DNA of 64,000 nucleotides from NCBI GenBank assembly GCA_030679255.1, contig JAUXTO010000030.1, positions 3,420 through 67,419 on the forward strand. The letters run 5' to 3'. Source of the DNA: Candidatus Gottesmanbacteria bacterium. Its GTDB lineage: Bacteria > Patescibacteriota > Microgenomatia > UBA10105 > UBA927. Below, one piece after another: positions 1 through 59,488 of the stretch; position 1 is the first letter of the stretch, and each line of letters opens with the position of its first letter. The notes under the pieces were generated by a model, which was not told the origin of the DNA, did not search any database, and was given only the letters and a program-made list of their open reading frames with translations. A program made the position numbers and the translations under genes.

Positions 1-572
1 TCCTCGACAAATAGTCGATATGTCAACTTCCCATGCATCGGAGAATTTGAAAAATAATTCCGTATGATCGTAGAATCGCTGATAGGCTTCGACTTACTAT
101 CAACATATTCACCATACGATGACCATGGATACCTCTCGAGCTCCAGCCTCAAGGCCAGGCCTTGTGGCTGAGAGTCAAACATTTCTACAGGATTGATGTG
201 AATATATCGAGAAACATGTAACAAATATTCATCAGTATCAATGGCCTTCGCCTTAAATTTACCCTGAAAAACTGCCCCTACCCTCTCATATTTTTTATTG
301 AAGTACATTGTATAGGCAGTATGAAGCCGATGAATAAATCGATCAATTGACTCATCCCCATCTTGACGGAGAAGCAGATGAACATGGTTTGGCATCAGGC
401 AGTAAGCGAGAATGGTAACTTCATGCTTTTCCCGATACTCATGTAGTCGCTTGAGGTACCTTTGATAGTCCTTGGCATCATAAAAAATAGTCTGTTTATT
501 ATGTCCACGGTTATACACGTGATAGTACCCCTGGGCCATAAAAATCGGTAATCTCGCTGACATAATGATCAT
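1..572 (-). CDS. REP-associated tyrosine transposase (RAYT) / IS200-like HUH transposase, partial (C-terminus runs off window start)
   Basis: Minus-strand ORF absent from the supplied track because it is truncated by the window edge. It translates as M(IIM)SARLPIFMAQGYYHVYNRG...LAYCLMPNHVHLLL...YIHINP...YPWSSYGEY, showing the HUH motif (NHVH) and the Tyr-region architecture of IS200/RAYT. It is paralogous to ORF 45346..46080 and carries an in-frame family-1 palindrome (QPQGLALRLE). Confidence 0.7.
   Translation of the reverse strand, partial: MIIMSARLPIFMAQGYYHVYNRGHNKQTIFYDAKDYQRYLKRLHEYREKHEVTILAYCLMPNHVHLLLRQDGDESIDRFIHRLHTAYTMYFNKKYERVGAVFQGKFKAKAIDTDEYLLHVSRYIHINPVEMFDSQPQGLALRLELERYPWSSYGEYVDSKSKPISDSTIIRNYFSNSPMHGKLTYRLFVE
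145..169. repeat. family-1 palindrome (inverse orientation) inside RAYT gene 1..572
   Basis: agcctcaaggccaggccttgtggct encodes QPQGLALRLE on the minus strand. Confidence 0.7.
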
Positions 573-592
573 TATGCACCCATCACCACTCA

Positions 593-616
593 GGCACAAG
601 GCCTGGCCTTGAGGCT
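593..616. repeat. family-1 palindrome between the divergent RAYT and DHH genes
   Basis: ggcacaaggcctggccttgaggct, 20 bp upstream of the RAYT start. Confidence 0.7.
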
Positions 617-653
617 AAACATTCTATACCAGAGAATATGCTATACTTTCAAT

Positions 654-4719: not shown

Positions 4720-4986
4720 ATGATGAATCCATTTAAGGCGTTGGGAGACATGAACGCGATGCGCAAGCAAGCCATGGCCATCCAACAGGCGCTCGAAGGC
4801 GAGGAGTTTGAAGTGACCCAGGGCTCTGTCCGCGTCGTTATCACCGGCAACCAAAATGTGAAAGTAGTGGAGGTCGATGGGATGCCAAACGAAGATTTCA
4901 AACGCGCGATCAATGACGCAATCAAAAGAAGCCAACAGGCAGCAGCAGGAAAGTTAGCAGAGTTGTCCAAAAATTTTCAACAGTAA
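4720..4986 (+). CDS. ybaB: nucleoid-associated protein YbaB/EbfC
   Basis: MMNPFKALGDMNAMRKQAMAIQ... is typical YbaB. It follows dnaX as in most bacteria. Confidence 0.8.
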   Translation: MMNPFKALGDMNAMRKQAMAIQQALEGEEFEVTQGSVRVVITGNQNVKVVEVDGMPNEDFKRAINDAIKRSQQAAAGKLAELSKNFQQ

Positions 4987-5100
4987 GCACCTAGCATCAA
5001 AATCCAAGCACCAAACAAGAACAAACAAGAAGTAACTGGGTTGTTTATATATTGATGCTTGTATTTGTTTGTTTGGTACTTGGTGCTTGATGCTTGGAAT
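4985..5100. repeat. family-4 long imperfect hairpin (CCAAGCACCAAA / TTTGGTGCTTGG motifs)
   Basis: Left arm atccaagcaccaaacaagaacaaacaag pairs with right arm cttgtatttgtttgtttggtacttggtgcttgatgcttgg. Related copies at 26163, 43882 and 58254. Confidence 0.6.
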
Positions 5101-5106
5101 TTATAC

Positions 5107-6171
5107 ATGCAGGTTATTGTCACCGGCTCATTGGGCTTCGACTACATCATGGACTTTCCGGGACGGTTTGCCGACCGGATCATGCCGGATAATATCCATA
5201 AACTTTCGTTAAGTTTTCTCGTTGATAAACTTTCTAAACAATTCGGCGGTGTTGCGGGCAACATCGCCTATACACTCAAACTCCTTGGTGTCGATCCTCT
5301 CATTGTCGCCTGTGTAGGCAATGATTTTGCTCCATATAAAACACATCTCAACGATCATCAACTCAGCACGAAATGGATAAAAGAATTTAAAAATGAATCA
5401 TGCAGTCTCTACTCCGTTGTCACTGACCAGGACGATAACCAAATTGGTTCGTATTTCGTGGGAGCCATGAAACATGCAAAAGAATTATCTTTGCAAGACA
5501 TCGTCTTGCGAGGCAAGACGATGTCTTATGAAAATTTCGTCGTCATCTCTCCCACAGATCCCAAAGCTATGATCAAATACGTCAAAGAATGCCGATCACT
5601 CAAGATCCGGTACCTCTATGATCCGGCATTCCAGATTGCGACATTCTCACCAGAGGAACTCAAGGAGGGAATTACCGGCGCGGCCCTTTTCATCGGTAAC
5701 GACTATGAAATCTCCCTTGTGGAAAATCGCCTCGGCATCTCCCATGATGAGCTTCTCGCCATGGCGCCAGTCGTCATCACGACCCTGGGAGCCAAAGGCT
5801 CCATCATCGAGACCCGCAAGGAAGCCATCCACGTTGCTCCCGCCAAACCCAAAAATACCAGCGACCCGACTGGAGCGGGGGACGCCTACCGCGGGGGCTT
5901 CCTCGCCGGATACATAAAAGCTCTAGGCACAAGGCCAGGCCTTGAGGTTAGACAGCTTTCGGTTTCCCCAGGCACAAAACTGCACACTCTAGGCACAAGG
6001 CCTGGCCTTGAGGCTACGTTGTCCGCTGATGAACTTCTTGTCTGCGGTCAGATGGGCTCGGTCGCCGCCGTCTACACGGTCGAGACCTACGGCACCCAGA
6101 CCCACGCCTTCACGAAAAAAGAATTTGCAGCGCGTTATAAGGCCAACTTTGGGCTCCCGATCTCGTTATGA
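5107..6171 (+). CDS. PfkB-family carbohydrate/nucleoside kinase (putative adenosine kinase)
   Basis: PfkB signature DPTGAGDAYRGGFLAGY. Two family-1 palindromes are inserted in frame (GTRPGLEV...GTRPGLEA) after the signature. Neighbouring ahcY suggests an adenosine substrate. Confidence 0.75.
   Translation: MQVIVTGSLGFDYIMDFPGRFADRIMPDNIHKLSLSFLVDKLSKQFGGVAGNIAYTLKLLGVDPLIVACVGNDFAPYKTHLNDHQLSTKWIKEFKNESCSLYSVVTDQDDNQIGSYFVGAMKHAKELSLQDIVLRGKTMSYENFVVISPTDPKAMIKYVKECRSLKIRYLYDPAFQIATFSPEELKEGITGAALFIGNDYEISLVENRLGISHDELLAMAPVVITTLGAKGSIIETRKEAIHVAPAKPKNTSDPTGAGDAYRGGFLAGYIKALGTRPGLEVRQLSVSPGTKLHTLGTRPGLEATLSADELLVCGQMGSVAAVYTVETYGTQTHAFTKKEFAARYKANFGLPISL
5927..5950. repeat. family-1 palindrome GGCACAAGGCCWGGCCTTGAGGYT (copy in PfkB kinase CDS)
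   Basis: ggcacaaggccaggccttgaggtt. Confidence 0.7.
5993..6016. repeat. family-1 palindrome (second copy in PfkB kinase CDS)
   Basis: ggcacaaggcctggccttgaggct. A partial copy ggcacaaaac lies at 5971. Confidence 0.7.
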
Positions 6172-8144: not shown

Positions 8145-8156
8145 ACGACCACGTTC

Positions 8157-8250
8157 GTCATTCCCGCGTACGCTCGCCTCGCTGGAGCTCCGGCGAAGCG
8201 GGCGGGAATCCAGAGTAAAAACACTGGATCCCGGCCTTCGCCGGGATGAC
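8157..8250. repeat. family-3 composite palindromic element (intergenic copy)
   Basis: gtcattcccgcg...gcgggaatcc agagtaaaaacactgg atcccggccttcgccgggatgac. Imperfect terminal inverted repeats GTCATYCCSGCG. Confidence 0.65.
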
Positions 8251-8811: not shown

Positions 8812-9126
8812 ATGATTACTGACGCAGATATCAAGAAACTCAAAAAAGTCTTTGCCACCAAGGATGATCTGAAACAGTTTGCCACCAAGGATGATCTGAA
8901 ACAGTTTGCAACGAAAGAGGACTTCAACACCATGGAAAGAACATTGAGAGGCGATATCGCAAACGACCTTAAGTACATGGAAGCCAGATTAAGAAAAAAC
9001 ATTGTTGACGATGTCGCAGATATGTTGCAGGAGAGTGTTATCAATCTGTTGAGCCAACACGAAGAACGAATCGACCGCTTGGAAAAGCACGTTGGCGGTT
9101 TTCCAGCAATCGCGAGCGCCAGTTGA
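8812..9126 (+). CDS. hypothetical small protein with FATKDDLKQ tandem repeats
   Basis: Three 9-aa repeats (27-bp DNA tandem) followed by a charged helical tail. A paralogue lies at 56988..57269. Confidence 0.5.
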   Translation: MITDADIKKLKKVFATKDDLKQFATKDDLKQFATKEDFNTMERTLRGDIANDLKYMEARLRKNIVDDVADMLQESVINLLSQHEERIDRLEKHVGGFPAIASAS

Positions 9127-13074: not shown

Positions 13075-14973
13075 TTGAGAAGAAAAAATATGACCAACCT
13101 TATCTACATGACCGACAGTTACCGGACTGAGCTTGCCGCTCAGGTGGTGTCGTGCATCAAAAAGGGGAGCGGGTGGGAGATAGTGCTCGACCAAACGATT
13201 TTCTACCCGCAGGGGGGCGGGCAACCGTCAGACAAAGGAACGATCAAGGGAAAACAGGGGCTTGCGACGGTCAAGCATGTCCGGATGTTGGGCGATGAGG
13301 TCATCCACGAATGTGCCTTGAATGGGACAATCGATGAAAAGGAGTCGGTTGAATGTTCCATCGATTGGAATGCTCGGTACCACAACATGCGTGCCCATAG
13401 CGCGGGTCACGTCGTCCATGAAGCGGTGAGGCTCGTCGCGCCATATCTGGATCCGATTAAAGGAGAGCACGGAAAATCCGCATATATTGAGTACAAGGGT
13501 TCTCTTCCTGTCGACAAAAAACCACTTATCGAACAACAAGGTAACGACCTAATCCGACAAAATTTGACCCTTAAAACCGAATTTGTGACTCTGGACGAAC
13601 TTCAAAAGAGAGCTTCGTACATTCCTGAGCATCTTCCAAAACACAAGCCGCTTCGCATTCTTTCGGTAGGTAACTATCCACCTATTCCCGATGGGGGTAC
13701 GCAGGTAAAATCCACCGGAGAAATAGGGGAGATAACTATTACTTCAGTGGATAACGCAGATGATCACGTTCGTGTTTACTACGCAATACCTCCAAACGAA
13801 TCCGATGAAACAAAAAACGATACCTGCCAATCAGTCGACTCAACTGTATCAACATCTAGGCACGATACCGGGAATCAAGCAATCAAAGTGGATCAAATTA
13901 TGACCGCCCCGCAATTTATCGGCCTTCTCTTGGATGCTCAACGCAATGCTAAAGAATTTATTACCATTTCAGATAAATCAGCCGAAGAACTTCGATTGCT
14001 TCTTTTAGGCCCGAAAAGCGAACTTGGCCGGCTCACCAAACAAATCCGTCAAGTACCAGCCTCCGATCGAGGGAATGTCGGGGTGGTCGTCAACGAAGTC
14101 AAGAGTTCTATTATTGAGGCCATCGCCATCCACGCCGCTCATTCCACAACTTCAAAGCCTGGCTTTGATTTGAATTGGGCCGATGTAACAATCCCGGGTA
14201 TTCGACCCCCCGAAGGTCATCTGCATATTGTGTCACAGGCGATCACTGAAATCACGCGGATTTTCGAACGGATCGGCTTCACGCGCGTCCGGCACCCGGA
14301 GGTTGACTGGGATTACTATGCGTTTGAGGCGCTTAACATGCCGCCGCACCACCCGGCCCGCGACGAATGGGAAACCTTCTTCATCGACTACCCCGGCAAA
14401 CCTCCAGGCACAAGGCCTGGCCTTGAGGCTACGCGCAGGAAACAAATTGTGCTTACTCCCCACACGAGCAATGGCCAGGTGCGTGAGATGGAAAAGGGAA
14501 AGCTTCCCATCCGCATGATCAACATTGCTAAGTGTTATCGTCGTCAATCCGATGTATCCCACGTCCCGATGTTTCATCAATTTGAAGGCATGTATATTGA
14601 TAAAGGAGTCACCATCGGAGACTTGACTGGAGTATTTAATTTTTTCGTAAAAAATTACTTTGGTCCAGACCGCAATGTCCGTTTACGCCCGTTCCATTTT
14701 CAATTCACCGAGCCTTCTGTTGAAATTGATATCAACTGTGGTATTTGTCTGGGCAAGGGATGTCGATTGTGCAAAGAAGGTTGGCTTGAAATGGCTGGTG
14801 GGGGTATGGTGCACCCAAATGTACTTAAAGCTGGTGGGGTAGATCCGAGCGTCTACAGTGGTTTTGCTTTTGGATGGGGTGTTGAACGCGCCGCCATGAT
14901 GAAATCCGGCACCAAACTCGATGACATCCGATTGCTGTATAGCAATGACATTCGATTTCTCAATCAATTCTAA
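13075..14973 (+). CDS. pheS: AlaX-like tRNA-editing domain fused to phenylalanine--tRNA ligase alpha subunit
   Basis: N-terminal ~270 aa resembles AlaX (YMTDSY...FYPQGGGQPSDKGTI...HSAGHVV...DGGTQVKSTGEIG). C-terminal ~350 aa is PheS (class II motifs, LTPHTSNGQVR, FGWGVERAAM). No stop codon separates them. Family-1 palindrome in frame at 14407..14430. Confidence 0.75.
   Translation: MRRKNMTNLIYMTDSYRTELAAQVVSCIKKGSGWEIVLDQTIFYPQGGGQPSDKGTIKGKQGLATVKHVRMLGDEVIHECALNGTIDEKESVECSIDWNARYHNMRAHSAGHVVHEAVRLVAPYLDPIKGEHGKSAYIEYKGSLPVDKKPLIEQQGNDLIRQNLTLKTEFVTLDELQKRASYIPEHLPKHKPLRILSVGNYPPIPDGGTQVKSTGEIGEITITSVDNADDHVRVYYAIPPNESDETKNDTCQSVDSTVSTSRHDTGNQAIKVDQIMTAPQFIGLLLDAQRNAKEFITISDKSAEELRLLLLGPKSELGRLTKQIRQVPASDRGNVGVVVNEVKSSIIEAIAIHAAHSTTSKPGFDLNWADVTIPGIRPPEGHLHIVSQAITEITRIFERIGFTRVRHPEVDWDYYAFEALNMPPHHPARDEWETFFIDYPGKPPGTRPGLEATRRKQIVLTPHTSNGQVREMEKGKLPIRMINIAKCYRRQSDVSHVPMFHQFEGMYIDKGVTIGDLTGVFNFFVKNYFGPDRNVRLRPFHFQFTEPSVEIDINCGICLGKGCRLCKEGWLEMAGGGMVHPNVLKAGGVDPSVYSGFAFGWGVERAAMMKSGTKLDDIRLLYSNDIRFLNQF
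14407..14430. repeat. family-1 palindrome inside pheS (encodes GTRPGLEA)
   Basis: ggcacaaggcctggccttgaggct. Confidence 0.7.
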
Positions 14974-15408: not shown

Positions 15409-17496
15409 ATGAATATATTAGTACCAGATTCATGGTTGCGAGAATTCCTTATTACAAAGGCAACTCCGCAGCAAATCAAGGAATACCTCTCTTTGTGCGG
15501 TCCATCGGTTGAACGGATGCATGAGGAGGATGGGGAATTCATTTATGACATCGAGGTTACGGGCAACCGCCCGGATTCAATGTCCATAGTGGGTATCGCG
15601 CGAGAAGCGGCAGCCATCCTCCCACGCTTTGAAATTGCGGCAAAATTACAAAATGATCCCTATTCACAAAACTACGCACAAAAGGTGAGACCTTTTGAGG
15701 CTAATAATTTGACAAAAAAACTCGTTATCAAAACCGATCCGATCCTCAATCCGCGTTGGACGAGCGTCGTTATGGATAACGTGAAGGTGGGGCCGTCGCC
15801 AGTATGGCTTCAAAAACGGCTCGAGGCAACGGGGATCCGCTCGCTGAACACGATTGTCGATGTGACCAATTACATCATGCGGGCCTATGGTCAACCGGTT
15901 CATGCGTTTGACTACGACCAGGTACTGCCAAAAAATGGCGTTTCCACCATGATCCTTCGTGCCTCAAAAAAAGGAGAGCGGGTGATCACTCTCGATGGCA
16001 AAACGCACATCCTGCCCGGTGATGACATCGTCATAGAGGACGGATCAGGGAGACTTATCGACCTATGCGGCATCATGGGCGCCCAAAATTCATCGGTAAA
16101 AAGCACAACGAAAACCATTGTCCTCTTTATGCAAACGTACGAACCCACGCACATCAGAAAAACCAGCATGTCTTTGGCCCATCGAACAGAAGCAGCCGAT
16201 CTTTTTGAAAAGGGGCTCGATCCGGAACTGGTTTTGCCCTCGGTTCTCAAAGGAATTGAACTTATCGCCCAGGTTGCTGGAGGAAAAGTCTCAAGTAAAA
16301 TTTACGATATCTACCCCAAACCGTATAAATCATCTACTGTTTCCGCCTCTCGGACAAAGTCTGATGCCTACATCGGCAAACGTCTGAAAGACAAAGAGAT
16401 TGCCGATATTCTCAAACCCCTCGGTTTCCAAGCAAAAGTCACCAAAGACAGTATCACGGTCACGGTTCCCAGTTTCCGCCGGGATGTGACGATTGACGTC
16501 GACATCATCGAGGAACTGGCACGCATCTACGGCTACCACAACATCACGTCGACCCTTCCGGACACCGCCCCGCCCGTCGTTATACCCGATCAATCACTTA
16601 GTTGGGAGGAAGAAATCAAAGTGCGACTGCGCGATTGGGGATACACCGAAACCTACACCTACTCCATGATTTCCGAAGAACTTATGGATATCTTTGGATT
16701 GGACAAATCTAAAGCGTATAAAATTGCCAATCCATTATCCAACGAATGGGTCTACATGCGACCCAGCCTCTGGCCCAGCATGCTTTCTACCGTCAAACAA
16801 AACATGAATATAACACAAAATCTAAGACTCTTTGAGTTGAGTATGGTATATGATTACCGACGCGGCGATCTTCCCGACGAAAAGCCCGTTTTACTCATTG
16901 CGTGGACAGGAGATAAATTTTATGAAGCGAAGGGACTCGCGGAGGCAATTCTTGATTTGCTTGGTATCGGGATACCTGCCGAATCTGTCATCCCGGCGAA
17001 CGCCGGGATCCAGAGTACAAAAAAACTGGATCCTCGGGTCAAGCCCGAGGATGACAAGCAACTCGATTGGTACGGCGCACAACGACTATCATTTGGTAGT
17101 TTTGGATCCATCGGACTCGTTCACCAGAAATTTCTTGATGCATTACAAATTCATACACCCGTAACCATCCTGGAATTGGATGTTGCAGAGCTTGTCAAGT
17201 ATGCGCGCTCCACCAAGCAATACATCCCCATCCCAAAATATCCTGCAAGCTACGAGGACCTAGCATTCGTGTTGCCACCACAGACACCCGTCGGCCCCAT
17301 GATTGCCGCGCTCAAATCCGCACACTCATTAGTGAGCGACGTTTCACTCTTAGATCAATTTGAAACCACGACCACCTTTCACATCACCTATCTTTCATTG
17401 GAAAAAAATTTGACAACTGAAGATATCCGCCCCATCCGCGAGAAGCTCATCGCCATGGCCCAAAAGAAATTCAACGCGCAGCTCAAGACAGTGTAA
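15409..17496 (+). CDS. pheT: phenylalanine--tRNA ligase beta subunit
   Basis: MNILVPDSWLREFL N-terminus, B3/4 and B5 domains, C-terminal FDX-ACB-like domain. 695 aa, so likely lacks the tRNA-binding B2 domain. 69-bp family-3 element in frame at 16987..17055. Confidence 0.9.
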   Translation: MNILVPDSWLREFLITKATPQQIKEYLSLCGPSVERMHEEDGEFIYDIEVTGNRPDSMSIVGIAREAAAILPRFEIAAKLQNDPYSQNYAQKVRPFEANNLTKKLVIKTDPILNPRWTSVVMDNVKVGPSPVWLQKRLEATGIRSLNTIVDVTNYIMRAYGQPVHAFDYDQVLPKNGVSTMILRASKKGERVITLDGKTHILPGDDIVIEDGSGRLIDLCGIMGAQNSSVKSTTKTIVLFMQTYEPTHIRKTSMSLAHRTEAADLFEKGLDPELVLPSVLKGIELIAQVAGGKVSSKIYDIYPKPYKSSTVSASRTKSDAYIGKRLKDKEIADILKPLGFQAKVTKDSITVTVPSFRRDVTIDVDIIEELARIYGYHNITSTLPDTAPPVVIPDQSLSWEEEIKVRLRDWGYTETYTYSMISEELMDIFGLDKSKAYKIANPLSNEWVYMRPSLWPSMLSTVKQNMNITQNLRLFELSMVYDYRRGDLPDEKPVLLIAWTGDKFYEAKGLAEAILDLLGIGIPAESVIPANAGIQSTKKLDPRVKPEDDKQLDWYGAQRLSFGSFGSIGLVHQKFLDALQIHTPVTILELDVAELVKYARSTKQYIPIPKYPASYEDLAFVLPPQTPVGPMIAALKSAHSLVSDVSLLDQFETTTTFHITYLSLEKNLTTEDIRPIREKLIAMAQKKFNAQLKTV
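16987..17055. repeat. family-3 palindromic element inside pheT (69 bp, in frame)
   Basis: gtcatcccggcgaacgccgggatcc agagtacaaaaaaactgg atcctcgggtcaagcccgaggatgac. Two small hairpins flank a spacer. Encodes VIPANAGIQSTKKLDPRVKPEDD. Confidence 0.7.
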
Positions 17497-17506
17497 TGCA
17501 AATTTT

Positions 17507-17564
17507 GTCATCCCCGACCCGCTTCGCCGGAGCGTCAGCGAGGCGAGCGTACGCCGGAAATGAC
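17507..17564. repeat. family-3 palindromic element module (intergenic, after pheT)
   Basis: gtcatccccgacccgcttcgccggagcgtcagcgaggcgagcgtacgccggaaatgac. Confidence 0.55.
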
Positions 17565-24032: not shown

Positions 24033-26153
24033 ATGGATCTCACCCTTGCCACTCCCGTCCAATATGTCCCCCGCGTAGGACCGGCACGAGCCAAGCTCCT
24101 GGCCAAACTCGGAATCGAAACGGTCCACGACCTTCTGTATTACATTCCGTTCCGCTATGATGATTTCTCGATTGTGTCTCCGATTGCCAAAGTACGTCCG
24201 GGTGAAACGGTCACAATTGGCGGCACGGTCACGGCATTTCATAACGCCTTCACCAAATCCGGCAAAAAAATGCAGGAGGTAAAAGTAAGCGACGAGAGTG
24301 GCACACTTGAGGTCATCTGGTTTAATCAGCCCTTCCTCGTCCGGGTTTTACCGGTTGGTACCATCGTTCGACTTGCCGGCAAAATTGACTGGTACGGCCA
24401 CAAACTCGTCATGTCCTCTCCCTCCTACGAGGTGACAGGGCGAGACCCTGTCAATGTACCTCCTGCTTATTCAGCGATATCGCCAATAATGACAGGGTCT
24501 CGCCCTGTCATTCAAAGTCTTCATACCGGCCGGCTTGTTCCGGTCTATTCAGAAACTGCAGGGCTGACGTCCAAATGGTTGCGGGGCAGGATTTCATTTG
24601 TTTTAGAAACGGTCTTAAAACATCTGAACGATACTATACCGGAGTCTGTCCAATCCGATCACCATCTCGTGCCACTCGCTCGTGCAATTCAATCAGTTCA
24701 CTTTCCGGATTCGATCGTACGGTCCGAAACCGCACGCCGGCGGCTCGCGTTTGATGAACTATTTTTCCTACAACTGCGCGCATGGCATGAACGTCGCGTC
24801 TGGGAACTATCAAAAAAATCCCATGCGTGCAGGATAGACGAAAAAAAAGTCACCGAACTCATCGCCTCGCTCCCGTTTACCCTGACGGATGATCAACATG
24901 GATCGATTAAAGAAATCTTGCATGATTTGACGAGAACCTACCCCATGAACCGGCTGCTGGAAGGCGATGTGGGATCCGGTAAAACCGTCGTTGCGATGAT
25001 TGCCATGTATGTAGCCCATCTCAATGGGTTACAGTCTGTCCTTATGGCGCCCACACAAATACTGGCGGAACAACATCATAAAACTATTAAAGGTTTTCTT
25101 GAACCGTTCGGTATCTCTGTTGCCTTAATCACCGGAAATCGAAGCATGAATCAGGAATCAGGAATCAGGGTAAAACTGCATCCCGGTATTCTCGTCGGTA
25201 CTCATGCCCTCCTCTCTAAAAAAATCAAATACCAACGGTTGGGTCTTGTGGTCATCGATGAACAACAACGCTTCGGGGTCGTGCAACGAGGGACACTCGA
25301 AGAAATGACGAAGCGGGGAAATACTCCCCATTTGCTCACCATGACCGCAACTCCCATTCCGCGGACTATTGCCCGTACGATCATGGGAAATCTGGACCTC
25401 TCGGTTCTGGCAACCATACCCGGCGGCCGGAAAAAAATTAAAACGTGGGTCGTTCCGAACGAAAAGCGGGACAAAAGCTATCCCTGGATCACGCAGCAAA
25501 TCAACCAAACCGGCGGCCAAGTATTCGTCATCTGTCCCCTGATCGATGAATCAGAAACCCTTTTCACCGCAAAGGCCGCCACAACCGAATATATCCGTCT
25601 CAAATCCCTATTTCCGGAACTTCAACTTGGCCTCCTCCATGGCCGCATGAAACCAAAAGAAAAAACTGAAGTTCTCGACGCATTCCGGCGGGGTGACATC
25701 CACATGCTTGTGGCCACCCCCGTCGTCGAGGTAGGTATCGACATACCCAACGCAACAATCATGGTCATCGAGGCGGCCGAACGCTTCGGCCTGTCCCAAC
25801 TCCACCAACTCCGCGGCCGGGTAGGGAGGGGAGACCTGCAGTCATATTGTTTATTGTTTACCGAACAGGGAGAAGAACGTACCCTCACCCGTCTCAAATC
25901 CATGGAAACCACGCATAGCGGGCCGGTCCTGGCGGACATAGACCTCCAACTTCGGGGTCCGGGTGAGCTTTTCGGCACGCGCCAACATGGGATACCGGAC
26001 CTCCATGTAGCGCGTTGGACGGATACAGCCCTTATCGCTGAAACAGGAAAATCCGTGAAAGAATTGGTGGCCAGTGACCCCTCCCTCACTGCTTTTCCCC
26101 TCTTGAGAGACAAGCTCGGAGAGAGTACAATAAAAACTATAACAGTTGATTAA
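24033..26153 (+). CDS. recG: ATP-dependent DNA helicase RecG
   Basis: Wedge domain, helicase motif I GDVGSGKT, DEQQRFG, motif VI QLRGRVGRG. Two family-2 palindromes (24433, 24490) and an AATCAGG x3 tandem (25147) lie in frame. An alternative start is 24015. Confidence 0.9.
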   Translation: MDLTLATPVQYVPRVGPARAKLLAKLGIETVHDLLYYIPFRYDDFSIVSPIAKVRPGETVTIGGTVTAFHNAFTKSGKKMQEVKVSDESGTLEVIWFNQPFLVRVLPVGTIVRLAGKIDWYGHKLVMSSPSYEVTGRDPVNVPPAYSAISPIMTGSRPVIQSLHTGRLVPVYSETAGLTSKWLRGRISFVLETVLKHLNDTIPESVQSDHHLVPLARAIQSVHFPDSIVRSETARRRLAFDELFFLQLRAWHERRVWELSKKSHACRIDEKKVTELIASLPFTLTDDQHGSIKEILHDLTRTYPMNRLLEGDVGSGKTVVAMIAMYVAHLNGLQSVLMAPTQILAEQHHKTIKGFLEPFGISVALITGNRSMNQESGIRVKLHPGILVGTHALLSKKIKYQRLGLVVIDEQQRFGVVQRGTLEEMTKRGNTPHLLTMTATPIPRTIARTIMGNLDLSVLATIPGGRKKIKTWVVPNEKRDKSYPWITQQINQTGGQVFVICPLIDESETLFTAKAATTEYIRLKSLFPELQLGLLHGRMKPKEKTEVLDAFRRGDIHMLVATPVVEVGIDIPNATIMVIEAAERFGLSQLHQLRGRVGRGDLQSYCLLFTEQGEERTLTRLKSMETTHSGPVLADIDLQLRGPGELFGTRQHGIPDLHVARWTDTALIAETGKSVKELVASDPSLTAFPLLRDKLGESTIKTITVD
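24433..24453. repeat. family-2 palindrome TGACAGGG-NNNNN-CCCTGTCA (in recG, encodes VTGRDPV)
   Basis: tgacagggcgagaccctgtca. Confidence 0.75.
24490..24510. repeat. family-2 palindrome (in recG, encodes MTGSRPV)
   Basis: tgacagggtctcgccctgtca. Confidence 0.75.
25147..25168. repeat. heptamer micro-tandem repeat (GAATCAG)x3 inside recG
   Basis: gaatcaggaatcaggaatcagg. Confidence 0.6.
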
Positions 26154-26162
26154 ATCTCAATG

Positions 26163-26240
26163 TCCAAATCACAATGACCAACAAGGAGTAAGGATTTTGT
26201 AATTTATTGGTCATTGAGATTTGGATATTGGGATTTGAAA
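26163..26240. repeat. family-4 hairpin (tccaaatcacaatgaccaa ... ttggtcattgagatttgga), recG terminator region
   Basis: 18-bp stem with one mismatch. The downstream atttgga/atttgaa units link it to the 43882 and 58254 copies. Confidence 0.55.
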
Positions 26241-34305: not shown

Positions 34306-35033
34306 AGTATATTCATCCACCATTGGATTAATTGCTTCCCCCAACCCAAAGCGATGATCGTTCCCAACACAAGAAACGGACCAAACGCAATGTGTGCGCG
34401 GAGCTGGGTTTTGCCCGTTAAAATAAGTATGACACCCACTACCGCACCCGTCAAGAATGCGAGGTAGGAAGCGACTATAATATTTGGAAAACCAAGAAGT
34501 AATCCCATCAGAAACGCAAATTTCACATCCCCCAGTCCCATACCTTTTCCGCGTGTCACAAGCCATAAAAGGAAAAAAAATCCTCCCGCGCCAAGAGCCG
34601 ATAGCCACAAGGCCTGGCCTTGAAGGAGGACGCCGACTATCCCAATGATGACCATGCTATCCGGAATGATCTGGTATTTAAAATCAGCAACGAAGATCAC
34701 CAGCAGTGAACAAAAAAACAGCAGCCATCCCACCAAAGCCAGGCTTTGGGGAAATTCTAAAGCCTGGCTTTGAAGATAAACAAATCCCACAGCCGTCACC
34801 AATTCCACCACCGGATACTGCCAGAATAATTTTTCATGACATCTCCGGCATCGACCACGTTGGAGAAAAAAAGAGAGAAGGGGAATGAGCTCATACCACC
34901 GAAGCACTTTTTTACAATGATCGCAAACAGACCGTCCTGTGATCACATCTTCCCCCCGCGGCAGCCGGTCAATGAGGACATTGAGAAACGATCCTACTGC
35001 CAGACCAAAGATAAATACTATCAATTCCATCAT
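34302..35033 (-). CDS. pilD: prepilin peptidase (A24 family, PilD)
   Basis: N-terminal Zn-finger CDHC...CRRCH and polytopic TM domain. Three in-frame family-1-type palindromes (LQSQALEF, PQSLAL, LQGQALWLS). Confidence 0.85.
   Translation of the reverse strand: MMELIVFIFGLAVGSFLNVLIDRLPRGEDVITGRSVCDHCKKVLRWYELIPLLSFFLQRGRCRRCHEKLFWQYPVVELVTAVGFVYLQSQALEFPQSLALVGWLLFFCSLLVIFVADFKYQIIPDSMVIIGIVGVLLQGQALWLSALGAGGFFFLLWLVTRGKGMGLGDVKFAFLMGLLLGFPNIIVASYLAFLTGAVVGVILILTGKTQLRAHIAFGPFLVLGTIIALGWGKQLIQWWMNIL
34604..34627. repeat. family-1 palindrome variant inside pilD
   Basis: agccacaaggcctggccttgaagg. Confidence 0.65.
34734..34775. repeat. two family-1-related palindromes (CCAAAGCCAGGCTTTGG and AAAGCCTGGCTTTGAAG) inside pilD
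   Basis: ccaaagccaggctttgg gga aattc taaagcctggctttgaag. Core AARGCCWGGCYTT shared with GGCACAAGGCCTGGCCTTGAGG. Confidence 0.6.
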
Positions 35034-35066: not shown

Positions 35067-37322
35067 ATGAAGATCATCAAGCGATACATCTGGGATATCC
35101 TGGCGCTCACTGCAATAGCAACGGTTATTGGTATTTTTTTCTTCCGCTTCTTTTGGCCGGAACCGCAATTACTCGTTACTCCGGATTTTGGCAGAAGCGA
35201 TGCCTGGCATTTCAGCTTTGCGACGAAATTTGCGCTCTCTGAAAGTCTATCCCGCGGACAACTCCCGCTCTGGGAACCCCGGATGGGAATGGGGTTTCCA
35301 TTGTTTGCTGAAGGCCAAGTAGGCGCGCTCTTTCTCCCCAATCTCCTCCTCATGACTCTCCCGAGTCTGACAGGGTTGAACCCTGTCACCGCTTATAATG
35401 CTACGTACGTTATTCTGTTTCTCACATTGGGGTGGGGGATGTATGCATGGCTTCGCGTCATTGGATGTTCGCGGTTGGCGAGTTTATTCGGGGGGGTAAC
35501 CATCATGTTCTCCGGACAAACCATCCCTCGGCTGCCGCATCATACCCTTCTTCAATCCCTGAGCATGACGCCGATCCTCCTGGCGCTTGCTTATCGCGTT
35601 CTTACGGGAAAAAGTGCTATCTGGATATCCTTATTCGCCCTCGGCTTAAGCCAACAGCTCTTCACCGGGTCGCCGCAACCAGCGCTCCTCACGCTTTTCA
35701 TGATTGGCATATACACCGTCCTGACCTGCTATAGACAGGGTCTCGCCCTGTCACTTAAGCCTGTACTGCGCATACTATTGAGTATACTACTGGCTATCGG
35801 CATGTCTGCTATTCAACTATTGCCATCAGCTGAAATGCTCTCCCAATCCACATCCCCCCAGGGTTTTTCGCCGGAAGAGGCAAGCTATTATTCTCTTCCG
35901 CTCGTTCATCTGAAAACACTTGTGAGCCCGTTCATCCTGGGTAACCCCAAAAACGGAACATACCCACCATTTACCACATTTGACGGGAGTATTTTTTGGG
36001 AAAATAACCTGTACATCGGATGGCTACCATTCATTCTCGCGATCTTCGGCATTATTAGCCTCGCAAGGCAGTGCCTTGTAGCCTCGCAAGGCAGTGCCTT
36101 AAAAAATAAATATCTACCCATTTTTTTTCTCGTAACACTTATCGCATCATTCCTCCTTATGCTCGGAAAGTATTCTCCCGTTTATCTCGTCTATTCCGTC
36201 TGGCCGCTCAATCTTTTTCGGGTTCCATCCAGGTTTGCCTGGATATTCCTCATGACCATCGTATCTGCTTCTGCGTGGGTTATAACGCAAATGACCGGAA
36301 GGACCGGAAGATGGAATAAACTCTTTTCTGTGATCGTGAGCATTGTGGTCGGCATTCATGCGTATCAACTCATGGGTACCTGGTGGGACTATCACGCAAT
36401 CGCATCGGCACGTCTCTGGCTCGCCGCATCACCATTGATGAAAAAAATACAAGCTACCAAGGGCCCGGTCCGCACGATCGGCGTGGAACTCGTCCACAAC
36501 AAACAATTTCTCAAAACGGGGTGGACTCCCAATGCCGACACCTATCGATTCCTCACAAACGTTCCTTCTCCCAATGGCAATATCTACTGGAATATAACCC
36601 AGTCGGATGTCTATGCCGGCCGATTTCTCAAACGGTCATCTCTCGTAGAATCACTCTTAGGATCAGAATTAAAATCATCGGAAACCGTGGCAACAATAAG
36701 TGCCACGGCCAAACGCCTGCTTGATCTTTATCATGGCAATATCCTCGTGAGTACAATTCCCTTAGATATAAAAAATCCACTCTCAACGCTCGACGCGACC
36801 ACAAGCGCTGGGGTCACCATCACGGCGTATCGCAACGCGCAAGCGCTGCCCAGGGCCTATCTTGCCACACAAACAGTATTTACCCCGACTCTTTCCAAAG
36901 CTGCCGATACTCTGGCAAATCAATCGTTTATACCGGGAGTAAGCGTTCTCATCCACGACCAATCGCTTGTGCTGAATTCCGGAAATGATGAAGAAGGAGG
37001 AACGGTCAACATTACGCAGGATACACCGACGCGCGTCATGATGACGGCCAATGTCTCGGCGCCGCAAGCTATTCTCGTCTTTGGTGATACCTCTTATCCG
37101 GGGTGGAGGGCATCGATCAATGGAATGCAAACTCCGATCTATCCCGTCAACATCAAGGAGCGGGGAATTCTACTCACAAAAGGCAACCATGAAATAATTT
37201 GGACTTATGAACCCCTGGCATTTATCTTCGGCGCACGGATTTCGCTCGTGACCCTCATCCTGACTATTGCCCTCCCAATGGTATTTCCTCTTTTTGCCGC
37301 GCGGCTTCGTACATCCGCATAA
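35067..37322 (+). CDS. large polytopic membrane protein, YfhO-like (putative glycosyltransferase)
   Basis: 751 aa, >12 predicted TM helices, then a large extracytoplasmic C-terminal domain. Two family-2 palindromes in frame at 35368 and 35734. Confidence 0.4.
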   Translation: MKIIKRYIWDILALTAIATVIGIFFFRFFWPEPQLLVTPDFGRSDAWHFSFATKFALSESLSRGQLPLWEPRMGMGFPLFAEGQVGALFLPNLLLMTLPSLTGLNPVTAYNATYVILFLTLGWGMYAWLRVIGCSRLASLFGGVTIMFSGQTIPRLPHHTLLQSLSMTPILLALAYRVLTGKSAIWISLFALGLSQQLFTGSPQPALLTLFMIGIYTVLTCYRQGLALSLKPVLRILLSILLAIGMSAIQLLPSAEMLSQSTSPQGFSPEEASYYSLPLVHLKTLVSPFILGNPKNGTYPPFTTFDGSIFWENNLYIGWLPFILAIFGIISLARQCLVASQGSALKNKYLPIFFLVTLIASFLLMLGKYSPVYLVYSVWPLNLFRVPSRFAWIFLMTIVSASAWVITQMTGRTGRWNKLFSVIVSIVVGIHAYQLMGTWWDYHAIASARLWLAASPLMKKIQATKGPVRTIGVELVHNKQFLKTGWTPNADTYRFLTNVPSPNGNIYWNITQSDVYAGRFLKRSSLVESLLGSELKSSETVATISATAKRLLDLYHGNILVSTIPLDIKNPLSTLDATTSAGVTITAYRNAQALPRAYLATQTVFTPTLSKAADTLANQSFIPGVSVLIHDQSLVLNSGNDEEGGTVNITQDTPTRVMMTANVSAPQAILVFGDTSYPGWRASINGMQTPIYPVNIKERGILLTKGNHEIIWTYEPLAFIFGARISLVTLILTIALPMVFPLFAARLRTSA
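35368..35388. repeat. family-2 palindrome variant (TGACAGGGTTGAACCCTGTCA)
   Basis: Encodes LTGLNPVT inside the YfhO-like CDS. Confidence 0.7.
35734..35754. repeat. family-2 palindrome
   Basis: agacagggtctcgccctgtca encodes RQGLALSL. Confidence 0.7.
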
Positions 37323-43814: not shown

Positions 43815-43881
43815 ACTCCATCCATTATCAACTAGCGATCATATATAATGCAAGATGCGGGAACAAACCGGAGCGCAAAAA

Positions 43882-44010
43882 TTCCAAGCACCAAGCAACA
43901 AATACCAAACAAACTCAAAGCACCAATGTGCAAAAAAATAAAACGGTTTCGAACATTTGAATTTGGAATTTTGTATTTGTTTGGAATTTGGTGCTTGAGA
44001 TTTGGAATTT
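43882..44010. repeat. family-4 long hairpin (ccaagcaccaagcaacaaataccaaacaaa ... tttgtatttgtttggaatttggtgcttgag)
   Basis: Intergenic, between pilB and holB. Confidence 0.6.
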
Positions 44011-44023
44011 AAATTTTAAATGT

Positions 44024-44725
44024 ATGCATGCATATATCATTACTGGGGGCACAACCAAAGAGCGTAGTGAAAAAATTCAATCGCTTTTACAAGAGCGTGC
44101 TATTTCTCCGCACGACATTACGACCATTCTCCCTGATCCCAGCACAATCGGTATCGATCCGATCCGCGCGGTGCTACCTCGACTATCTGTGAGTCCGATG
44201 GGTGGTACTACTCACGCGGTAATCATACATTTGGCTCATACCATGACCCCCGAGGCCCAAAATGCATTCCTCAAAACACTCGAAGAGCCGCCTGGCGAAG
44301 CGATAATCTATCTGGAAACCGATCAGCCTGAAGCCCTCCTGCCGACGATTCTGTCCCGCTGTCAGATCATCCGTCTCACCGACAATAGTGACAGGGTCTC
44401 GCCCTGTCAAAAAGATCTGGATGCATCGGCCCAGTGTTTAAAAACCATTTATCAACTCCTCGCGGCTTCAGTGGGGGAGCGGCTTAAAATCATCGATATC
44501 TCCGTCAAAACCCGTGACGATGCCCTCGCCTTCGTCAATCAGTGCATTCAATCCCTTCACCATCATCTTCGCATGACAGGGTCTCGCCCTGTCACCCTTC
44601 CTCCCTCCTTAAATCTTTCTCAAACAATATCCGCTAAACTTCTCCGTTCTCTCCTCACCGCCCGCACTCAAATCCAGGGTAACATCACCCCCAAACTCGC
44701 CCTTGACGCTGTTTTTCTCTCCTGA
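44024..44725 (+). CDS. holB: DNA polymerase III delta' subunit
   Basis: MHAYIITGG, LKTLEEPP and SRCQ motifs. Two family-2 palindromes in frame (44389, 44574). The TGA stop lies inside a third copy (44723). Confidence 0.7.
   Translation: MHAYIITGGTTKERSEKIQSLLQERAISPHDITTILPDPSTIGIDPIRAVLPRLSVSPMGGTTHAVIIHLAHTMTPEAQNAFLKTLEEPPGEAIIYLETDQPEALLPTILSRCQIIRLTDNSDRVSPCQKDLDASAQCLKTIYQLLAASVGERLKIIDISVKTRDDALAFVNQCIQSLHHHLRMTGSRPVTLPPSLNLSQTISAKLLRSLLTARTQIQGNITPKLALDAVFLS
44389..44409. repeat. family-2 palindrome in holB (encodes DRVSPCQ)
   Basis: tgacagggtctcgccctgtca. Confidence 0.75.
44574..44594. repeat. family-2 palindrome in holB (encodes MTGSRPVT)
   Basis: tgacagggtctcgccctgtca. Confidence 0.75.
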
Positions 44726-44743
44726 CAGGGTTCAACCCTGTCA
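44723..44743. repeat. family-2 palindrome variant supplying the holB stop codon
   Basis: cTGAcagggttcaaccctgtca. Confidence 0.7.
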
Positions 44744-44879: not shown

Positions 44880-45356
44880 ATGTATGTACTTATTCCAACA
44901 TCACTGGGAGGAGAGCGCAGCAGTGAACCACCATATGCAAGAACCCCGTTAGATGAAATTCCTGACGATCGGTGGGGAAATATATGGCTGAAGATGAATC
45001 GTCGTCCATACAGTGGTGTGCGCTTGGAATTTGATAGTGAAGAAGCTCGAATACTTGAACAGGCGGGATTGTTTAATCGTTTAATCGGTGGAAAAAAACC
45101 GAACACTGAACACCTAATTACAATTTTAACAGAAACTTTTACACAAGAAGCTGATGGACCAAGCAAAAATGTAACATTTGTTAGACTTACCGGAAAGTTT
45201 GATCAAACTTCAGGCCCAACAACTCCTGACGATACCGTCTTAGGCACAGTCTTTCCCCATGCTTTAACTGATCATTTCAAGCCATTGTTCACAAAATTAG
45301 TTAATAGCGGACGTGCTACAGTTCCAAAGGCATTGCTCAATTCTGTCAATCAATAG
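44880..45356 (+). CDS. hypothetical protein
   Basis: 158-aa ORF with an upstream G-rich RBS and no recognisable motifs. Confidence 0.35.
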   Translation: MYVLIPTSLGGERSSEPPYARTPLDEIPDDRWGNIWLKMNRRPYSGVRLEFDSEEARILEQAGLFNRLIGGKKPNTEHLITILTETFTQEADGPSKNVTFVRLTGKFDQTSGPTTPDDTVLGTVFPHALTDHFKPLFTKLVNSGRATVPKALLNSVNQ

Positions 45357-46080
45357 CCATCTTCCCAATCACGAACTTCGAATCCTCGCCGTAGTCCTCG
45401 ACAAAACTCTCATACGATAGGAAATCCCGATAATCTCTGCGTTGTGCCGATCGAAAATAATCTAAGATATGCTCCGGATGCAACCACGAGGCTTGCTTCA
45501 AGCGCAGATAATACGGATAACTCGAGTATGGATACTCCCTCACACTGACAGGGCGAGACCCTGTCACTTCTTTTGGATTCAAGTGAATGTACCGGGTGAC
45601 ATGAAGGAGATACGAATCGCGATCAATGTACGCCGCTTTATATGGCCCTTGAAACAATGTTCCAATTCGCTTATATCGCTTATTGAAATACATGGAATAG
45701 CTCGTACATATAGCTTGAAGGAAGTTTGCCATACCGTAAGATTCTTTTTGATAAAGCACCAAGTGAAAATGGTTTGGCATCAAACAGTAGGCGAGAAGGG
45801 AGACTTCTTCAGCAAATGAACGCAGTGGCCGTATTCTGACAGGGCGAGACCCTGTCATTTTATCTAACGGATGCTCCAAAACCTTTTTAGGATCCAATTG
45901 AGGAGAAAGGTATGCCTTTAAGAAGCTTAAAAACACCCGATAATCCTGATCGTCAAGGAATATCAACCGCTTTTCGACACCACGATTGTATGCGTGGTAA
46001 TTGCCACCCGCAACATAAAGCTTCACGGTATTTTGCGAAGGCATACACCGATAATAATTGACAGGGCGAGACCTTGTCAA
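45346..46080 (-). CDS. REP-associated tyrosine transposase (RAYT) / IS200-like HUH transposase
   Basis: YHAYNRG...LAYCLMPNHFHLVL...YIHLNP...YPYSSY has the HUH motif and Tyr region. Paralogous to ORF 1..572. Three family-2 palindromes in frame (45546, 45837, 46059), so the true start may be M at 46044. Confidence 0.75.
   Translation of the reverse strand: MTRSRPVNYYRCMPSQNTVKLYVAGGNYHAYNRGVEKRLIFLDDQDYRVFLSFLKAYLSPQLDPKKVLEHPLDKMTGSRPVRIRPLRSFAEEVSLLAYCLMPNHFHLVLYQKESYGMANFLQAICTSYSMYFNKRYKRIGTLFQGPYKAAYIDRDSYLLHVTRYIHLNPKEVTGSRPVSVREYPYSSYPYYLRLKQASWLHPEHILDYFRSAQRRDYRDFLSYESFVEDYGEDSKFVIGKMAID
45546..45566. repeat. family-2 palindrome inside RAYT gene (encodes VTGSRPVSV)
   Basis: tgacagggcgagaccctgtca. 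Confidence 0.75.
45837..45857. repeat. family-2 palindrome inside RAYT gene (encodes MTGSRPVRI)
   Basis: tgacagggcgagaccctgtca. Confidence 0.75.
46059..46079. repeat. family-2 palindrome variant at RAYT 5' end
   Basis: tgacagggcgagaccttgtca. Confidence 0.7.
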
Positions 46081-46112
46081 TTATTTTCTCCAAATCCTAC
46101 AATAAGCTATAG

Positions 46113-48131
<2,019 letters not shown>

Positions 48132-56987: not shown

Positions 56988-57269
56988 ATGACAAACGCGA
57001 TGCCCATCACGAAGGATGACCTCAAAACAGTACTCAAGGAACTCAATATTGCAACAAAGGACGATCTCAAACCATTTGCAACAAAGGACGATCTCAAAGG
57101 ACTTTCCACAAAAGATGATCTTCTCCACCTCGAACGAAGGCTCAAGCTCCGTATGGGCAAACACCGCAATGAAATCTTTACCATGGTTGGCAATCTGGCA
57201 ACCAGTACTCCGAGCCGTCGTGAATTTGAGAGCCTCAAAAGTCAAAGTCGCTTTATCGCACACTCGTAG
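56988..57269 (+). CDS. hypothetical small protein with TKDDLK tandem repeats (paralogue of 8812..9126)
   Basis: ITKDDLK, ATKDDLK, ATKDDLK, STKDDLL followed by ERRLKLRMGKHR. Confidence 0.5.
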   Translation: MTNAMPITKDDLKTVLKELNIATKDDLKPFATKDDLKGLSTKDDLLHLERRLKLRMGKHRNEIFTMVGNLATSTPSRREFESLKSQSRFIAHS

Positions 57270-58248: not shown

Positions 58249-58253
58249 ATAAA

Positions 58254-58384
58254 TACCAAGCACCAAATTCCAAGTATCAAACAAATTCCAATTTCAATCC
58301 GCCAGTTGGCGGACTAAACGTTTTGAACATTGGTGCTTAGAATTTTGATATTGTTTGGAATTTGGTGCTTGTGATTTGGAATTT
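58254..58384. repeat. family-4 long hairpin with central gccagttggcgg stem-loop
   Basis: ataccaagcaccaaattccaagtatcaaacaaattccaa ... ttgatattgtttggaatttggtgcttgtgatttggaat. Confidence 0.6.
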
Positions 58385-59325: not shown

Positions 59326-59423
59326 GTCATCCTCGGGCTTGACCCGAGGATCCAGTCAAAACCCCCCTGGATTCCCGCCCGCTTCGCCAAAGCGACGGCG
59401 AGGCGAGCCTTCGCGGGAATGAC
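59326..59423. repeat. family-3 composite palindromic element (intergenic, opposite orientation to the 8157 copy)
   Basis: gtcatcctcgggcttgacccgaggatcc agtcaaaacccccctgg attcccgcccgcttcgccaaagcgacggcgaggcgagccttcgcgggaatgac. Confidence 0.65.
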
Positions 59424-59488
59424 GATCACTATAAGAATGTACGACATCACGAATATTGTCAAGCACCAGTCTGATATACTGTACATAT

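Follow-up and report, generated by a model that had tools for sequence, protein, structure and literature searches.

Two paralogous genes in a stretch of Candidatus Gottesmanbacteria DNA (contig JAUXTO010000030.1, positions 3,420 to 67,419; we refer to these 64,000 nucleotides as the window) encode transposases that resemble RAYTs (REP-associated tyrosine transposases), and both genes carry copies of REPs (repetitive extragenic palindromes) within the coding sequence. Each gene holds copies of one palindrome family only, which we term REP-A for gene 1 and REP-B for gene 2. The internal copies are translated in frame, and one of them occupies the same homologous position in both proteins (site 2; gene 2 has another internal copy at site 1). 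In orthologues, the internal copies are old and keep their positions, their stems are constrained at the level of DNA, and their loops change in concert; across the wider family, hairpins are found at site 2 in all three reading frames. The explanation that we favor, with moderate confidence, is that the internal copies are genuine cognate REPs that have been placed repeatedly in a permissive linker and are kept perfect by genome-wide homogenization at the DNA level.

The two genes and their REP copies in the window are:

1..563, minus strand: gene 1, a RAYT-like paralogue; 187 of its about 206 codons are in the window and the rest lie beyond the left edge
141..172: site 2 of gene 1, an in-frame REP-A read S-QPQGLAL-R, in the opposite orientation to the upstream copy and folding at −13.1 kcal/mol
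588..619: upstream REP-A copy of gene 1, with the arm TTGTGC (599-594, minus strand), a 17-nt spacer and CATAAT (576-571)
45343..45349, minus strand: decayed fourth REP-B of gene 2, of which only the arm TTGACAG is left; it contains the TGA stop
45346..46044, minus strand: gene 2, a RAYT-like HUH/Y1 transposase of 232 aa (the mechanically called open reading frame, or ORF, begins with a TTG and reaches 46080)
45546..45566: site 2 of gene 2, an in-frame REP-B read V-TGSRPV-S, in the linker between the catalytic-tyrosine helix and YPYSSY
45837..45857: site 1 of gene 2, an in-frame REP-B read M-TGSRPV-R, in a loop of a clade-specific segment of ~35 aa
46059..46079: upstream REP-B copy of gene 2, with one mismatch, in the promoter and outside the ORF

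Genes 1 and 2 are paralogous RAYT-like HUH/Y1 transposases. They are the only two Y1 genes in the window, they are different paralogues with proteins only about 45% identical, and both match Pfam Y1_Tnp (E = 7e-16 for gene 1, whose full-length protein is P0121, and E = 3e-9 for gene 2). In gene 2, the HUH motif is H92-F-H94 and the catalytic tyrosine is Y152, in RYIHLNP. Y152 lies 58 residues past the HUH motif, which is where the Pfam match stops, and the usual spacing is about 58-67 aa (PMC6006769). With Y152 placed in this way, site 2 must follow the catalytic-tyrosine helix. The top NCBIfam model is REP_Tyr_transpos (NF047646), which gave 38 bits for gene 2 and 65 bits for P0123, an orthologue of gene 1; both scores are below the 80-bit cut-off. 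The IS200 model of NCBIfam matched far more poorly (E = 0.0019). An AlphaFold2 model of gene 2 (pLDDT, the predicted local distance difference test, of 85) carries RYIHLNP on a helix at residues 143-160, and a fold search with this model found as its top solved structure 4er8, which is E. coli TnpA-REP bound to a REP hairpin (E = 2.5e-6), ranked above the IS608 and ISDra2 transposases. When the PDB was searched by sequence, with each protein and with a profile of 94 sequences, no significant match to a RAYT appeared; the link to 4er8 comes from the fold search only. Overall, the RAYT features seen here are the Y1 HUH fold, flanking recurrent palindromes, and single copy with synteny; a RAYT would also be expected to bind and cleave its cognate REP as single-stranded DNA.

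REP-B has the form TGACAGGG-N5-CCCTGTCA, and two exact copies of TGACAGGGCGAGACCCTGTCA lie within the ORF of gene 2 (45546-45566 and 45837-45857). The window has 8 matches to REP-B versus 0.00 expected (100 shuffles); we count 8-10 copies overall. REP-A has the form CAAGGCC-N-GGCCTTG. CCTCAAGGCCAGGCCTTGTGG is found in gene 1 at 147-167, where it is read QPQGLAL, and again at 594-614, and the window has 6 REP-A sites (8 if matches on both strands are counted) versus 0 expected. The families differ at the foot of the hairpin: REP-A copies carry [CGT]TAG beside the stem, whereas REP-B lacks such a tag and its stem begins TGACA. As single-stranded DNA, the hairpins of both genes fold at −8.6 to −13.1 kcal/mol, and site 2 of gene 2 folds at −8.9 kcal/mol (z-score −4.6). 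The in-frame copies of both genes sit between RYIHxNP and YP[WY]SSY, and the site-2 frames differ (CAA|GGC in gene 1, ACA|GGG in gene 2). The site-2 copy of gene 1 has CAG in place of the canonical TAG tag; in that frame, TAG would be a stop.

These results bear on an original prediction, made from the letters of the window, that both transposases carry their own family's palindrome at the same homologous site. This was right, as were the peptides that it quoted. It put the site just before a C-terminal catalytic tyrosine, however, and the catalytic tyrosine is the Y of RYIHxNP, so that the hairpin comes after its helix. It also ran gene 1 from 1 to 572, while the start is at 563. As for the two further copies that it assigned to gene 2, the one at 45837 is indeed in the protein, but the one at 46059 belongs to the promoter, as it precedes the probable ATG at 46044. 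Finally, it suggested modeling the structure to see if the palindrome sits in a surface loop. In the AlphaFold2 model of gene 2, site 2 (residues 161-173) is coil of lower confidence, and so is site 1 (about residues 60-80, pLDDT about 75); such loops may merely tolerate the encoded peptide.

REPs also supply parts of the promoters. In gene 2, the REP-B arm TTGACA (46080-46075) is the −35 box and TATTAT (46056-46051) is the −10 box, with an 18-nt spacer and 11/12 consensus matches. The mRNA of gene 2 is probably leaderless, because the −10 box ends 6 nt ahead of the ATG at 46044 and because a Shine-Dalgarno sequence was absent at the start of the gene in the orthologues examined. The −35 box lies at −36 to −31 in 12 of the 13 gene 2 orthologues with a defined start (the exception is L164). 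In gene 1, CATAAT ends 7 nt before the ATG at 563, and the layout of this family's promoter (TTG[TA]GC from a REP arm, a 17-nt spacer, CATAAT, and 7 nt to the ATG) is also found in L170-L172. A REP in the promoter could allow for autoregulation. We also note that every REP-B copy contains a potential −35 hexamer, and that the opposite strand at the promoter palindrome reads TTGACA-18-TATTTT, aimed at gyrB, so that 46051-46087 has near-consensus −35/−10 pairs on both strands.

At the other end of the genes, REPs supply stop codons. A complete REP-B is present at the stop of gene 2 in 10 of 14 orthologues scanned (including L169, in which it lies 7 nt past the stop), and in 9 of these 10 the first bases of the repeat, TGA, are the stop codon. 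Among gene 2 orthologues the stop is donated by the TGA of TGACAGGG, and among those of gene 1 by REP-A's TAG tag. Within the gene 1 family, the REP-A copies at site 2 and at the stop codon share a frame, with CAG at site 2 and TAG at the terminus. (Gene 1's own stop-codon region is beyond the window edge.) The sense strand at site 2 of gene 2 has no T-run and so is not an intrinsic terminator. On the antisense strand, T-rich runs follow both internal REPs (45546-45576 and 45837-45867, plus strand) and give a terminator-like score, but these stem from Lys-Glu codons and are not conserved in orthologues. We also considered whether a truncated hyperactive isoform is made at site 2, and rejected this because short database proteins do not end there and because there is no sense-strand terminator. 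The phenotypes of E. coli deletions count against it too: hyperactivity is seen with Δ152 only, whereas Δ131 and Δ144 are defective (PMC8266576).

Homologues of gene 2 number in the thousands in Patescibacteria, and nearly all of them are of 225-235 aa. A metagenome scan gave few close relatives; our close set is the DNA of 13-14 orthologues (60-91% identity), obtained by exact-protein look-ups. Gene 2 lies between gyrB and holB in at least 7 genomes (those with enough flank), and gene 1 lies between a YbeY-DnaX-PfkB block and ProRS in 3 genomes. Given this conserved synteny, we take both genes to be single-copy and vertically inherited. Nearly all gene 2 orthologues share a layout of four hairpins, at −36, +180 to +192 (site 1), +471 to +483 (site 2), and +689 to +701 (the stop). 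In the gene 1 family (3 orthologues), there is a REP at −47, at +399 (site 2, read QG[LPR]AL), and across the stop codon. Distant homologues of gene 1 (about 50% identity) lack QGxAL, and their linker is 5-7 aa shorter. As a side observation, a 158-aa ORF on the plus strand with no Pfam match (44880-45356) is convergent with gene 2, whose last 11 nt it overlaps, and orthologous loci have an ORF of 132-177 aa at the same place.

The constraint on the stems acts at the DNA level. In alignments of the gene 2 family, both internal sites read [VLM]TGxxPV, and the stem TGACAGGG/CCCTGTCA is constant across orthologues. In a codon alignment of 13 of them, none of the 12 stem codons varies at its third position, while 18 other conserved four-fold codons of the gene (Thr, Gly, Pro, Val, or Ala) have a mean third-position majority fraction of 0.48 (the highest is 0.85). 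The 5-nt loop, in contrast, varies among genomes (TCTCG, CCTGG, TTGAA, TCTGA, TCTTG, and others) and within a genome is mostly identical or the reverse complement. The variable "loop" residues covary between the two internal sites: SRP with SRP, PGP with PGP, LHP with LHP, and SDP with SDP. The protein itself does not seem to need the encoded peptides, because linker residues are unrelated in relatives without the hairpin. Codon indels adjoin the site-2 hairpin even among close orthologues.

The wider set comprised 80 genome loci and 80 metagenome loci at 37-72% identity, and we mapped GC-rich perfect hairpins (stem of at least 6 bp) onto an alignment of 145 of the genes. The background is about 1 hairpin per five-residue bin, and REP hairpins peak at only four places: upstream, at −60 to −16 (77 genes), site 1 (about 20), site 2 (37), and just past the stop (81). 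(Another peak, at residues 85-89, was rejected as a REP; it is a coding by-product of the AYCLMP motif, GGCATA..TATGCC.) The hairpin sequences are specific to the genome, for example CAAGGA-cca, CGAGGA-gac, CAGGTA-tca, or CAGGGC-cag, and the same sequence recurs at two to four of the four places in one gene. In 31 of 80 loci, an 11-mer of the site-2 DNA is found unchanged in the immediate flanks of that gene, versus 0.96 expected and a maximum of 4 in 200 permutations that paired the site with another locus. For site 1, the count is 20 of 80 loci versus 1.5 expected. Matches of 11-mers to distant flanks were too noisy (17/80 expected by chance) and were dropped in favor of exact counts of stem patterns. 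Cognate hairpins are present at 2.9 per kb at the gene versus 0.03 per kb in the flanks (69 loci, ±10 kb; 21 copies in 676 kb).

Site 2 has been occupied or refreshed several times independently, as its hairpins are in all three reading frames in different clades, have indels beside them, and match the flanks of their own gene. The original prediction had offered a shared insertion hotspot as one of two readings, and this gains support from the three frames across clades and from the different frames of the two genes in the window. It also asked how the insert is distributed among homologues: the hairpin is present in close orthologues and variable in the wider family (perfect at site 2 in 37/145). 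If the segment were an ancestral part of all RAYTs of the clade with no palindrome in the DNA of relatives, the prediction would have failed; the segment is old in both clades, and yet its DNA is palindromic and tracks each genome's repeat. On the other hand, clades whose linker is either minimal (5 aa) or of the canonical NPxVAGL form lack a copy at site 2 although REPs flank the gene, which implies that the internal copy is dispensable. In the Saccharibacteria type, which has the 5-aa linker, 0 of 17 loci have a site-2 copy. Separately, many metagenome-assembled genomes with this Patescibacteria-type gene (L002, L004-L006, L008, and others) are titled "uncultured Gammaproteobacteria," "Nanoarchaeia," or "Bathyarchaeia"; these labels, or the binning, are probably wrong.

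Outside of the RAYT promoters, all REP copies of the window lie within ORFs that have Pfam domains, or at the end of such ORFs, and none are intergenic. Besides those in the RAYT genes, they are:

5927..6013: inverted REP-A doublet (copies at 5927 and 5993), in frame in a gene for a PfkB kinase
14408..14428: REP-A copy, in frame in a PheS fusion gene
24433..24510: inverted, REPIN-like REP-B doublet (copies at 24433 and 24490; a REPIN is a REP doublet that forms a hairpin), in frame within the gene for RecG
34605..34625: REP-A copy, in frame in a prepilin peptidase (A24) gene
35367-35388 and 35733-35753: two REP-B copies, in frame in a gene for a YfhO-like membrane protein
44389..44743: three REP-B copies (at 44389, 44574, and 44722), in or at the end of holB

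Because these copies are likewise in frame, intragenic copies are not special to the RAYT genes. In the commonest frame, REP-B reads T-G-x-x-P-V in both orientations because the stem is ACAGGG/CCCTGT. The copy at 35733-35753 is in a frame in which the TGA of the stem would be a stop, and its outermost T is now A (AGACAGGG), so the ORF stays open. The REP-B copies of holB keep their positions in orthologues (spacings of 149 and 182-185 nt), with stems that are equally perfect, and PfkB orthologues vary at one site between a doublet, a singlet, and a remnant. Loops flip orientation at orthologous sites. Pairs of loops agree in 43 of 63 cases within a RAYT gene (0.68), in 39 of 67 cases between a RAYT gene and other copies at the same locus (0.58), and in 254 of 1113 cases between genomes (0.23). 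Given the similarity of the first two values, we reject the idea that loops are homogenized only within the RAYT gene: the homogenization is genome-wide and is not specific to that gene.

We propose that each RAYT gene has been built into its own REP family, such that one copy gives the −35 box, one gives the stop codon in orthologues, and one (gene 1) or two (gene 2) are translated in frame in surface loops. Cognate REPs would have been placed, and then re-placed, in the permissive linker after the catalytic-tyrosine helix, and a process acting on DNA would keep the internal copies perfect and matched to the REP population of the genome. The likeliest such process is RAYT-dependent replacement or conversion of hairpins at fixed sites, by excision and re-insertion or by strand exchange, and the same process would keep up the in-frame REPs of housekeeping genes. 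Renewal driven by the RAYT would explain the fixed positions, the loop flips, the in-frame differences in presence and absence, and the match to the current REP population.

Several observations weigh against this explanation. First, the original prediction spoke of the palindromes as inserted. The hairpin is present in the linker, but in the gene 2 family the linkers that have it are barely longer (10-14 aa, versus 8-11 aa without). Similarly, the REP-coded and REP-free versions of the holB segment can be equal in length. Plain insertion is therefore not the whole story. Second, the density of cognate hairpins does not decay with distance from the gene within ±10 kb (69 loci), so simple spill-over by proximity fails to explain the enrichment. 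Third, repeats of 21 nt are short for conversion of the RecA type, and RAYT-mediated replacement is our proposal. Finally, the explanation has to suppose that the internal copies would be merely tolerated, as opposed to being selected for.

A second possibility is that the internal hairpins are selected cis-elements: RAYT output would be set via sites 1 and 2 and the promoter REP, either by the RAYT or by the hairpin acting as mRNA or single-stranded DNA. This could work by autorepression at the REP-borne −35 box, by translational pausing, or by control of mRNA decay, with selection for recognition preserving identity with the cognate REP. A regulatory role of the hairpins is plausible but unproven. 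The 20- to 100-fold enrichment of cognate REPs in or at the RAYT gene relative to neighboring DNA, without a distance gradient, is what this idea would predict. So are the following findings: the cognate REP recurs at site 2 across many clades, in both paralogues and not always in the same frame; the spacing between the ATG and the REP-borne −35 box is fixed in the orthologues of either family; and the stems are perfectly conserved at synonymous sites. However, whole clades have flanking REPs and do without the site-2 copy (as in the 17 Saccharibacteria-type loci), the REPs of holB are equally conserved and their loops are homogenized about as much (0.58 versus 0.68), and the missing T-run leaves site 2 without an intrinsic terminator. 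We take this possibility seriously but think that it is unlikely. A related, tentative idea is that the RAYT gene carries its own substrate in the promoter, the coding sequence, and the stop so that the enzyme can sense or limit its own production, or so that the locus is marked as a "home" source of REPs. If the hairpins were functional in this way, site 2 would be actively re-acquired whenever REP specificity drifts, and the substrate of a RAYT could be read straight from its own ORF.

A third possibility is that site 2 is the right-end hairpin of an ancestral IS200-like element, which was absorbed by read-through of the stop and gain of a C-terminal domain and has co-evolved since. Transposases of the IS200/IS605 family end shortly past the catalytic-tyrosine helix, and site 2 is located where the Pfam Y1_Tnp domain ends. 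Also, in the gene 1 family the site-2 and stop-codon copies are in the same REP frame and differ as CAG versus TAG. This seems improbable because the YPxSS-type C-terminal region is also found in RAYTs that lack a site-2 hairpin (the E. coli RAYT is presumably one of them), because the clades with the canonical NPxVAGL linker have no hairpin, because site 2 is used in three reading frames, and because the site-2 and stop-codon copies of gene 2 are in different frames.

A single ancient insertion in each gene, passively inherited with no renewal and no hotspot, would account for copies at the same position in all close orthologues. But the stems are perfect though synonymous sites are otherwise saturated, the loops change in concert and flip, and there are three frames and indels beside the hairpin, so we consider this very improbable. 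The idea that a conserved peptide motif (TGxxPV or QGxAL), or chance, gave rise to the palindromes has a negligible probability: the motifs are conserved within each clade, but unrelated genes and non-coding promoter DNA contain these 21-mers too, the linker residues of hairpin-free relatives are unrelated, third codon positions are invariant, and 0 matches are expected in shuffled sequence.

The window contains other repeats as well. A GC-rich family of 40-59 nt (CCCGCTTCGCCGGAGCG.CAGCGAGGCGAGC) is present at 46649-46688, 8155-8213, 17509-17559, and 59367-59425; the first of these copies is read in frame in gyrB, and the others, in both orientations, lie at the ends of genes. Two additional hairpin families, ATCCCGGC-N4-GCCGGGAT and ATCCTCGGG-N5-CCCGAGGAT, are found at 8228-8247, 16990-17009, 17030-17052, and 59329-59351. 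They share flanks (ACTGGATCC…GGATGACAA) and may be REPs with a transposase outside the window. AT-rich tracts of TTGGTGCTTGGAATTT-like units, in both orientations, are intergenic beside gene starts (4985-5115, 43866-44010, 58251-58384, and 26207-26239). Lastly, a 27-nt unit, TTTGCCACCAAGGATGATCTGAAACAG, is tandemly duplicated at 8851-8904 and at 57048-57101, with 74% identity between the two places; this is probably a coding repeat common to two paralogous genes.

RAYTs with their REPs are a model of a domesticated transposase that lives with non-autonomous elements, and the co-evolution of specificity and the renewal of REPs are open questions in that model. As the RAYT genes of these candidate phyla carry the substrate at fixed places, changes in enzyme and hairpin can be compared across thousands of genomes, and the concerted loop changes and flips at orthologous sites make in-place replacement of hairpins testable. 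In these tiny genomes REPs are almost entirely inside genes, which extends the case of Rickettsia (below) to a system with a candidate mobilizer. For annotation, it matters that REP-coded peptides (TGxxPV, QGxAL) appear in many proteins and that the TTGACA of a REP may seed promoters.

The original prediction knew of no precedent for this arrangement. In the open-access full-text literature, we did not find any report of a RAYT gene in which cognate REPs are translated at a conserved internal position, or of in-frame REPs in Patescibacteria. There are partial precedents, however, such as intragenic REPs, the palindromic elements of Rickettsia, and REPs over the ends of RAYT genes. REPs that overlap the ends of RAYT genes ("5'ov/3'ov") and intragenic GTAG/CGTC REPs have both been described (Di Nocera 2013, PMC3733652).

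The closest known system is the "REPtron" of Proteobacteria, in which RAYT/TnpA-REP occurs with REPs, REPINs, or BIMEs (bacterial interspersed mosaic elements) (Nunvar 2010, PMC2817692; Bertels & Rainey 2011, PMC3116915; Ton-Hoang 2012, PMC3333891; Messing 2012, PMC3479197). As in REPtrons, a single-copy, vertically inherited HUH/Y1 transposase is bracketed by cognate palindromes, with a separate REP family for each paralogue. The palindromes are also dispersed, some of them as inverted doublets, the REP-A family has a TAG tag at the foot of the stem, which may correspond to the 5' GTAG tetranucleotide of REPs, and the predicted fold is nearest to 4er8. Unlike in REPtrons, the ORF includes cognate REPs, at conserved internal sites, that are translated in frame; a −35 box and a stop codon come from the flanking REPs; and all of the dispersed copies that we saw are intragenic. 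Copy number is apparently low (about 0.03-0.1 per kb), the proteins are below the NCBIfam cut-off for RAYTs, and the gene 2 family has an extra segment of ~35 aa. Measured against what defines REPs and REPINs, these are short GC-rich palindromes in multiple copies, some as inverted doublets, but their location is not extragenic.

There is also a resemblance to the IS200/IS605 family (IS608, ISDra2), which has a Y1 HUH enzyme and subterminal hairpins on both sides of the gene; with similar single-stranded-DNA chemistry, the enzymes studied here could excise a hairpin and re-insert it at a fixed target. Unlike those elements, our genes are syntenic and single-copy instead of being multi-copy mobile units, they have a C-terminal domain, and they have hairpins inside the ORF.

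The other parallel is with the Rickettsia palindromic elements (RPEs), which Ogata is said to have reported in 2000 and which reportedly lie in frame inside genes. In both cases, short palindromic repeats are read through in the housekeeping genes (DNA repair, replication, and tRNA synthetases) of a reduced genome. In contrast to RPEs, a cognate transposase can be identified here, and its own gene harbors the element at a recurrent site; also, the elements are much shorter (singlets of 21-32 nt and doublets of about 80 nt) and presumably unrelated in sequence, and the host lineage differs. By analogy, then, the system would work like a REPtron combined with in-frame palindromic elements of the Rickettsia type.

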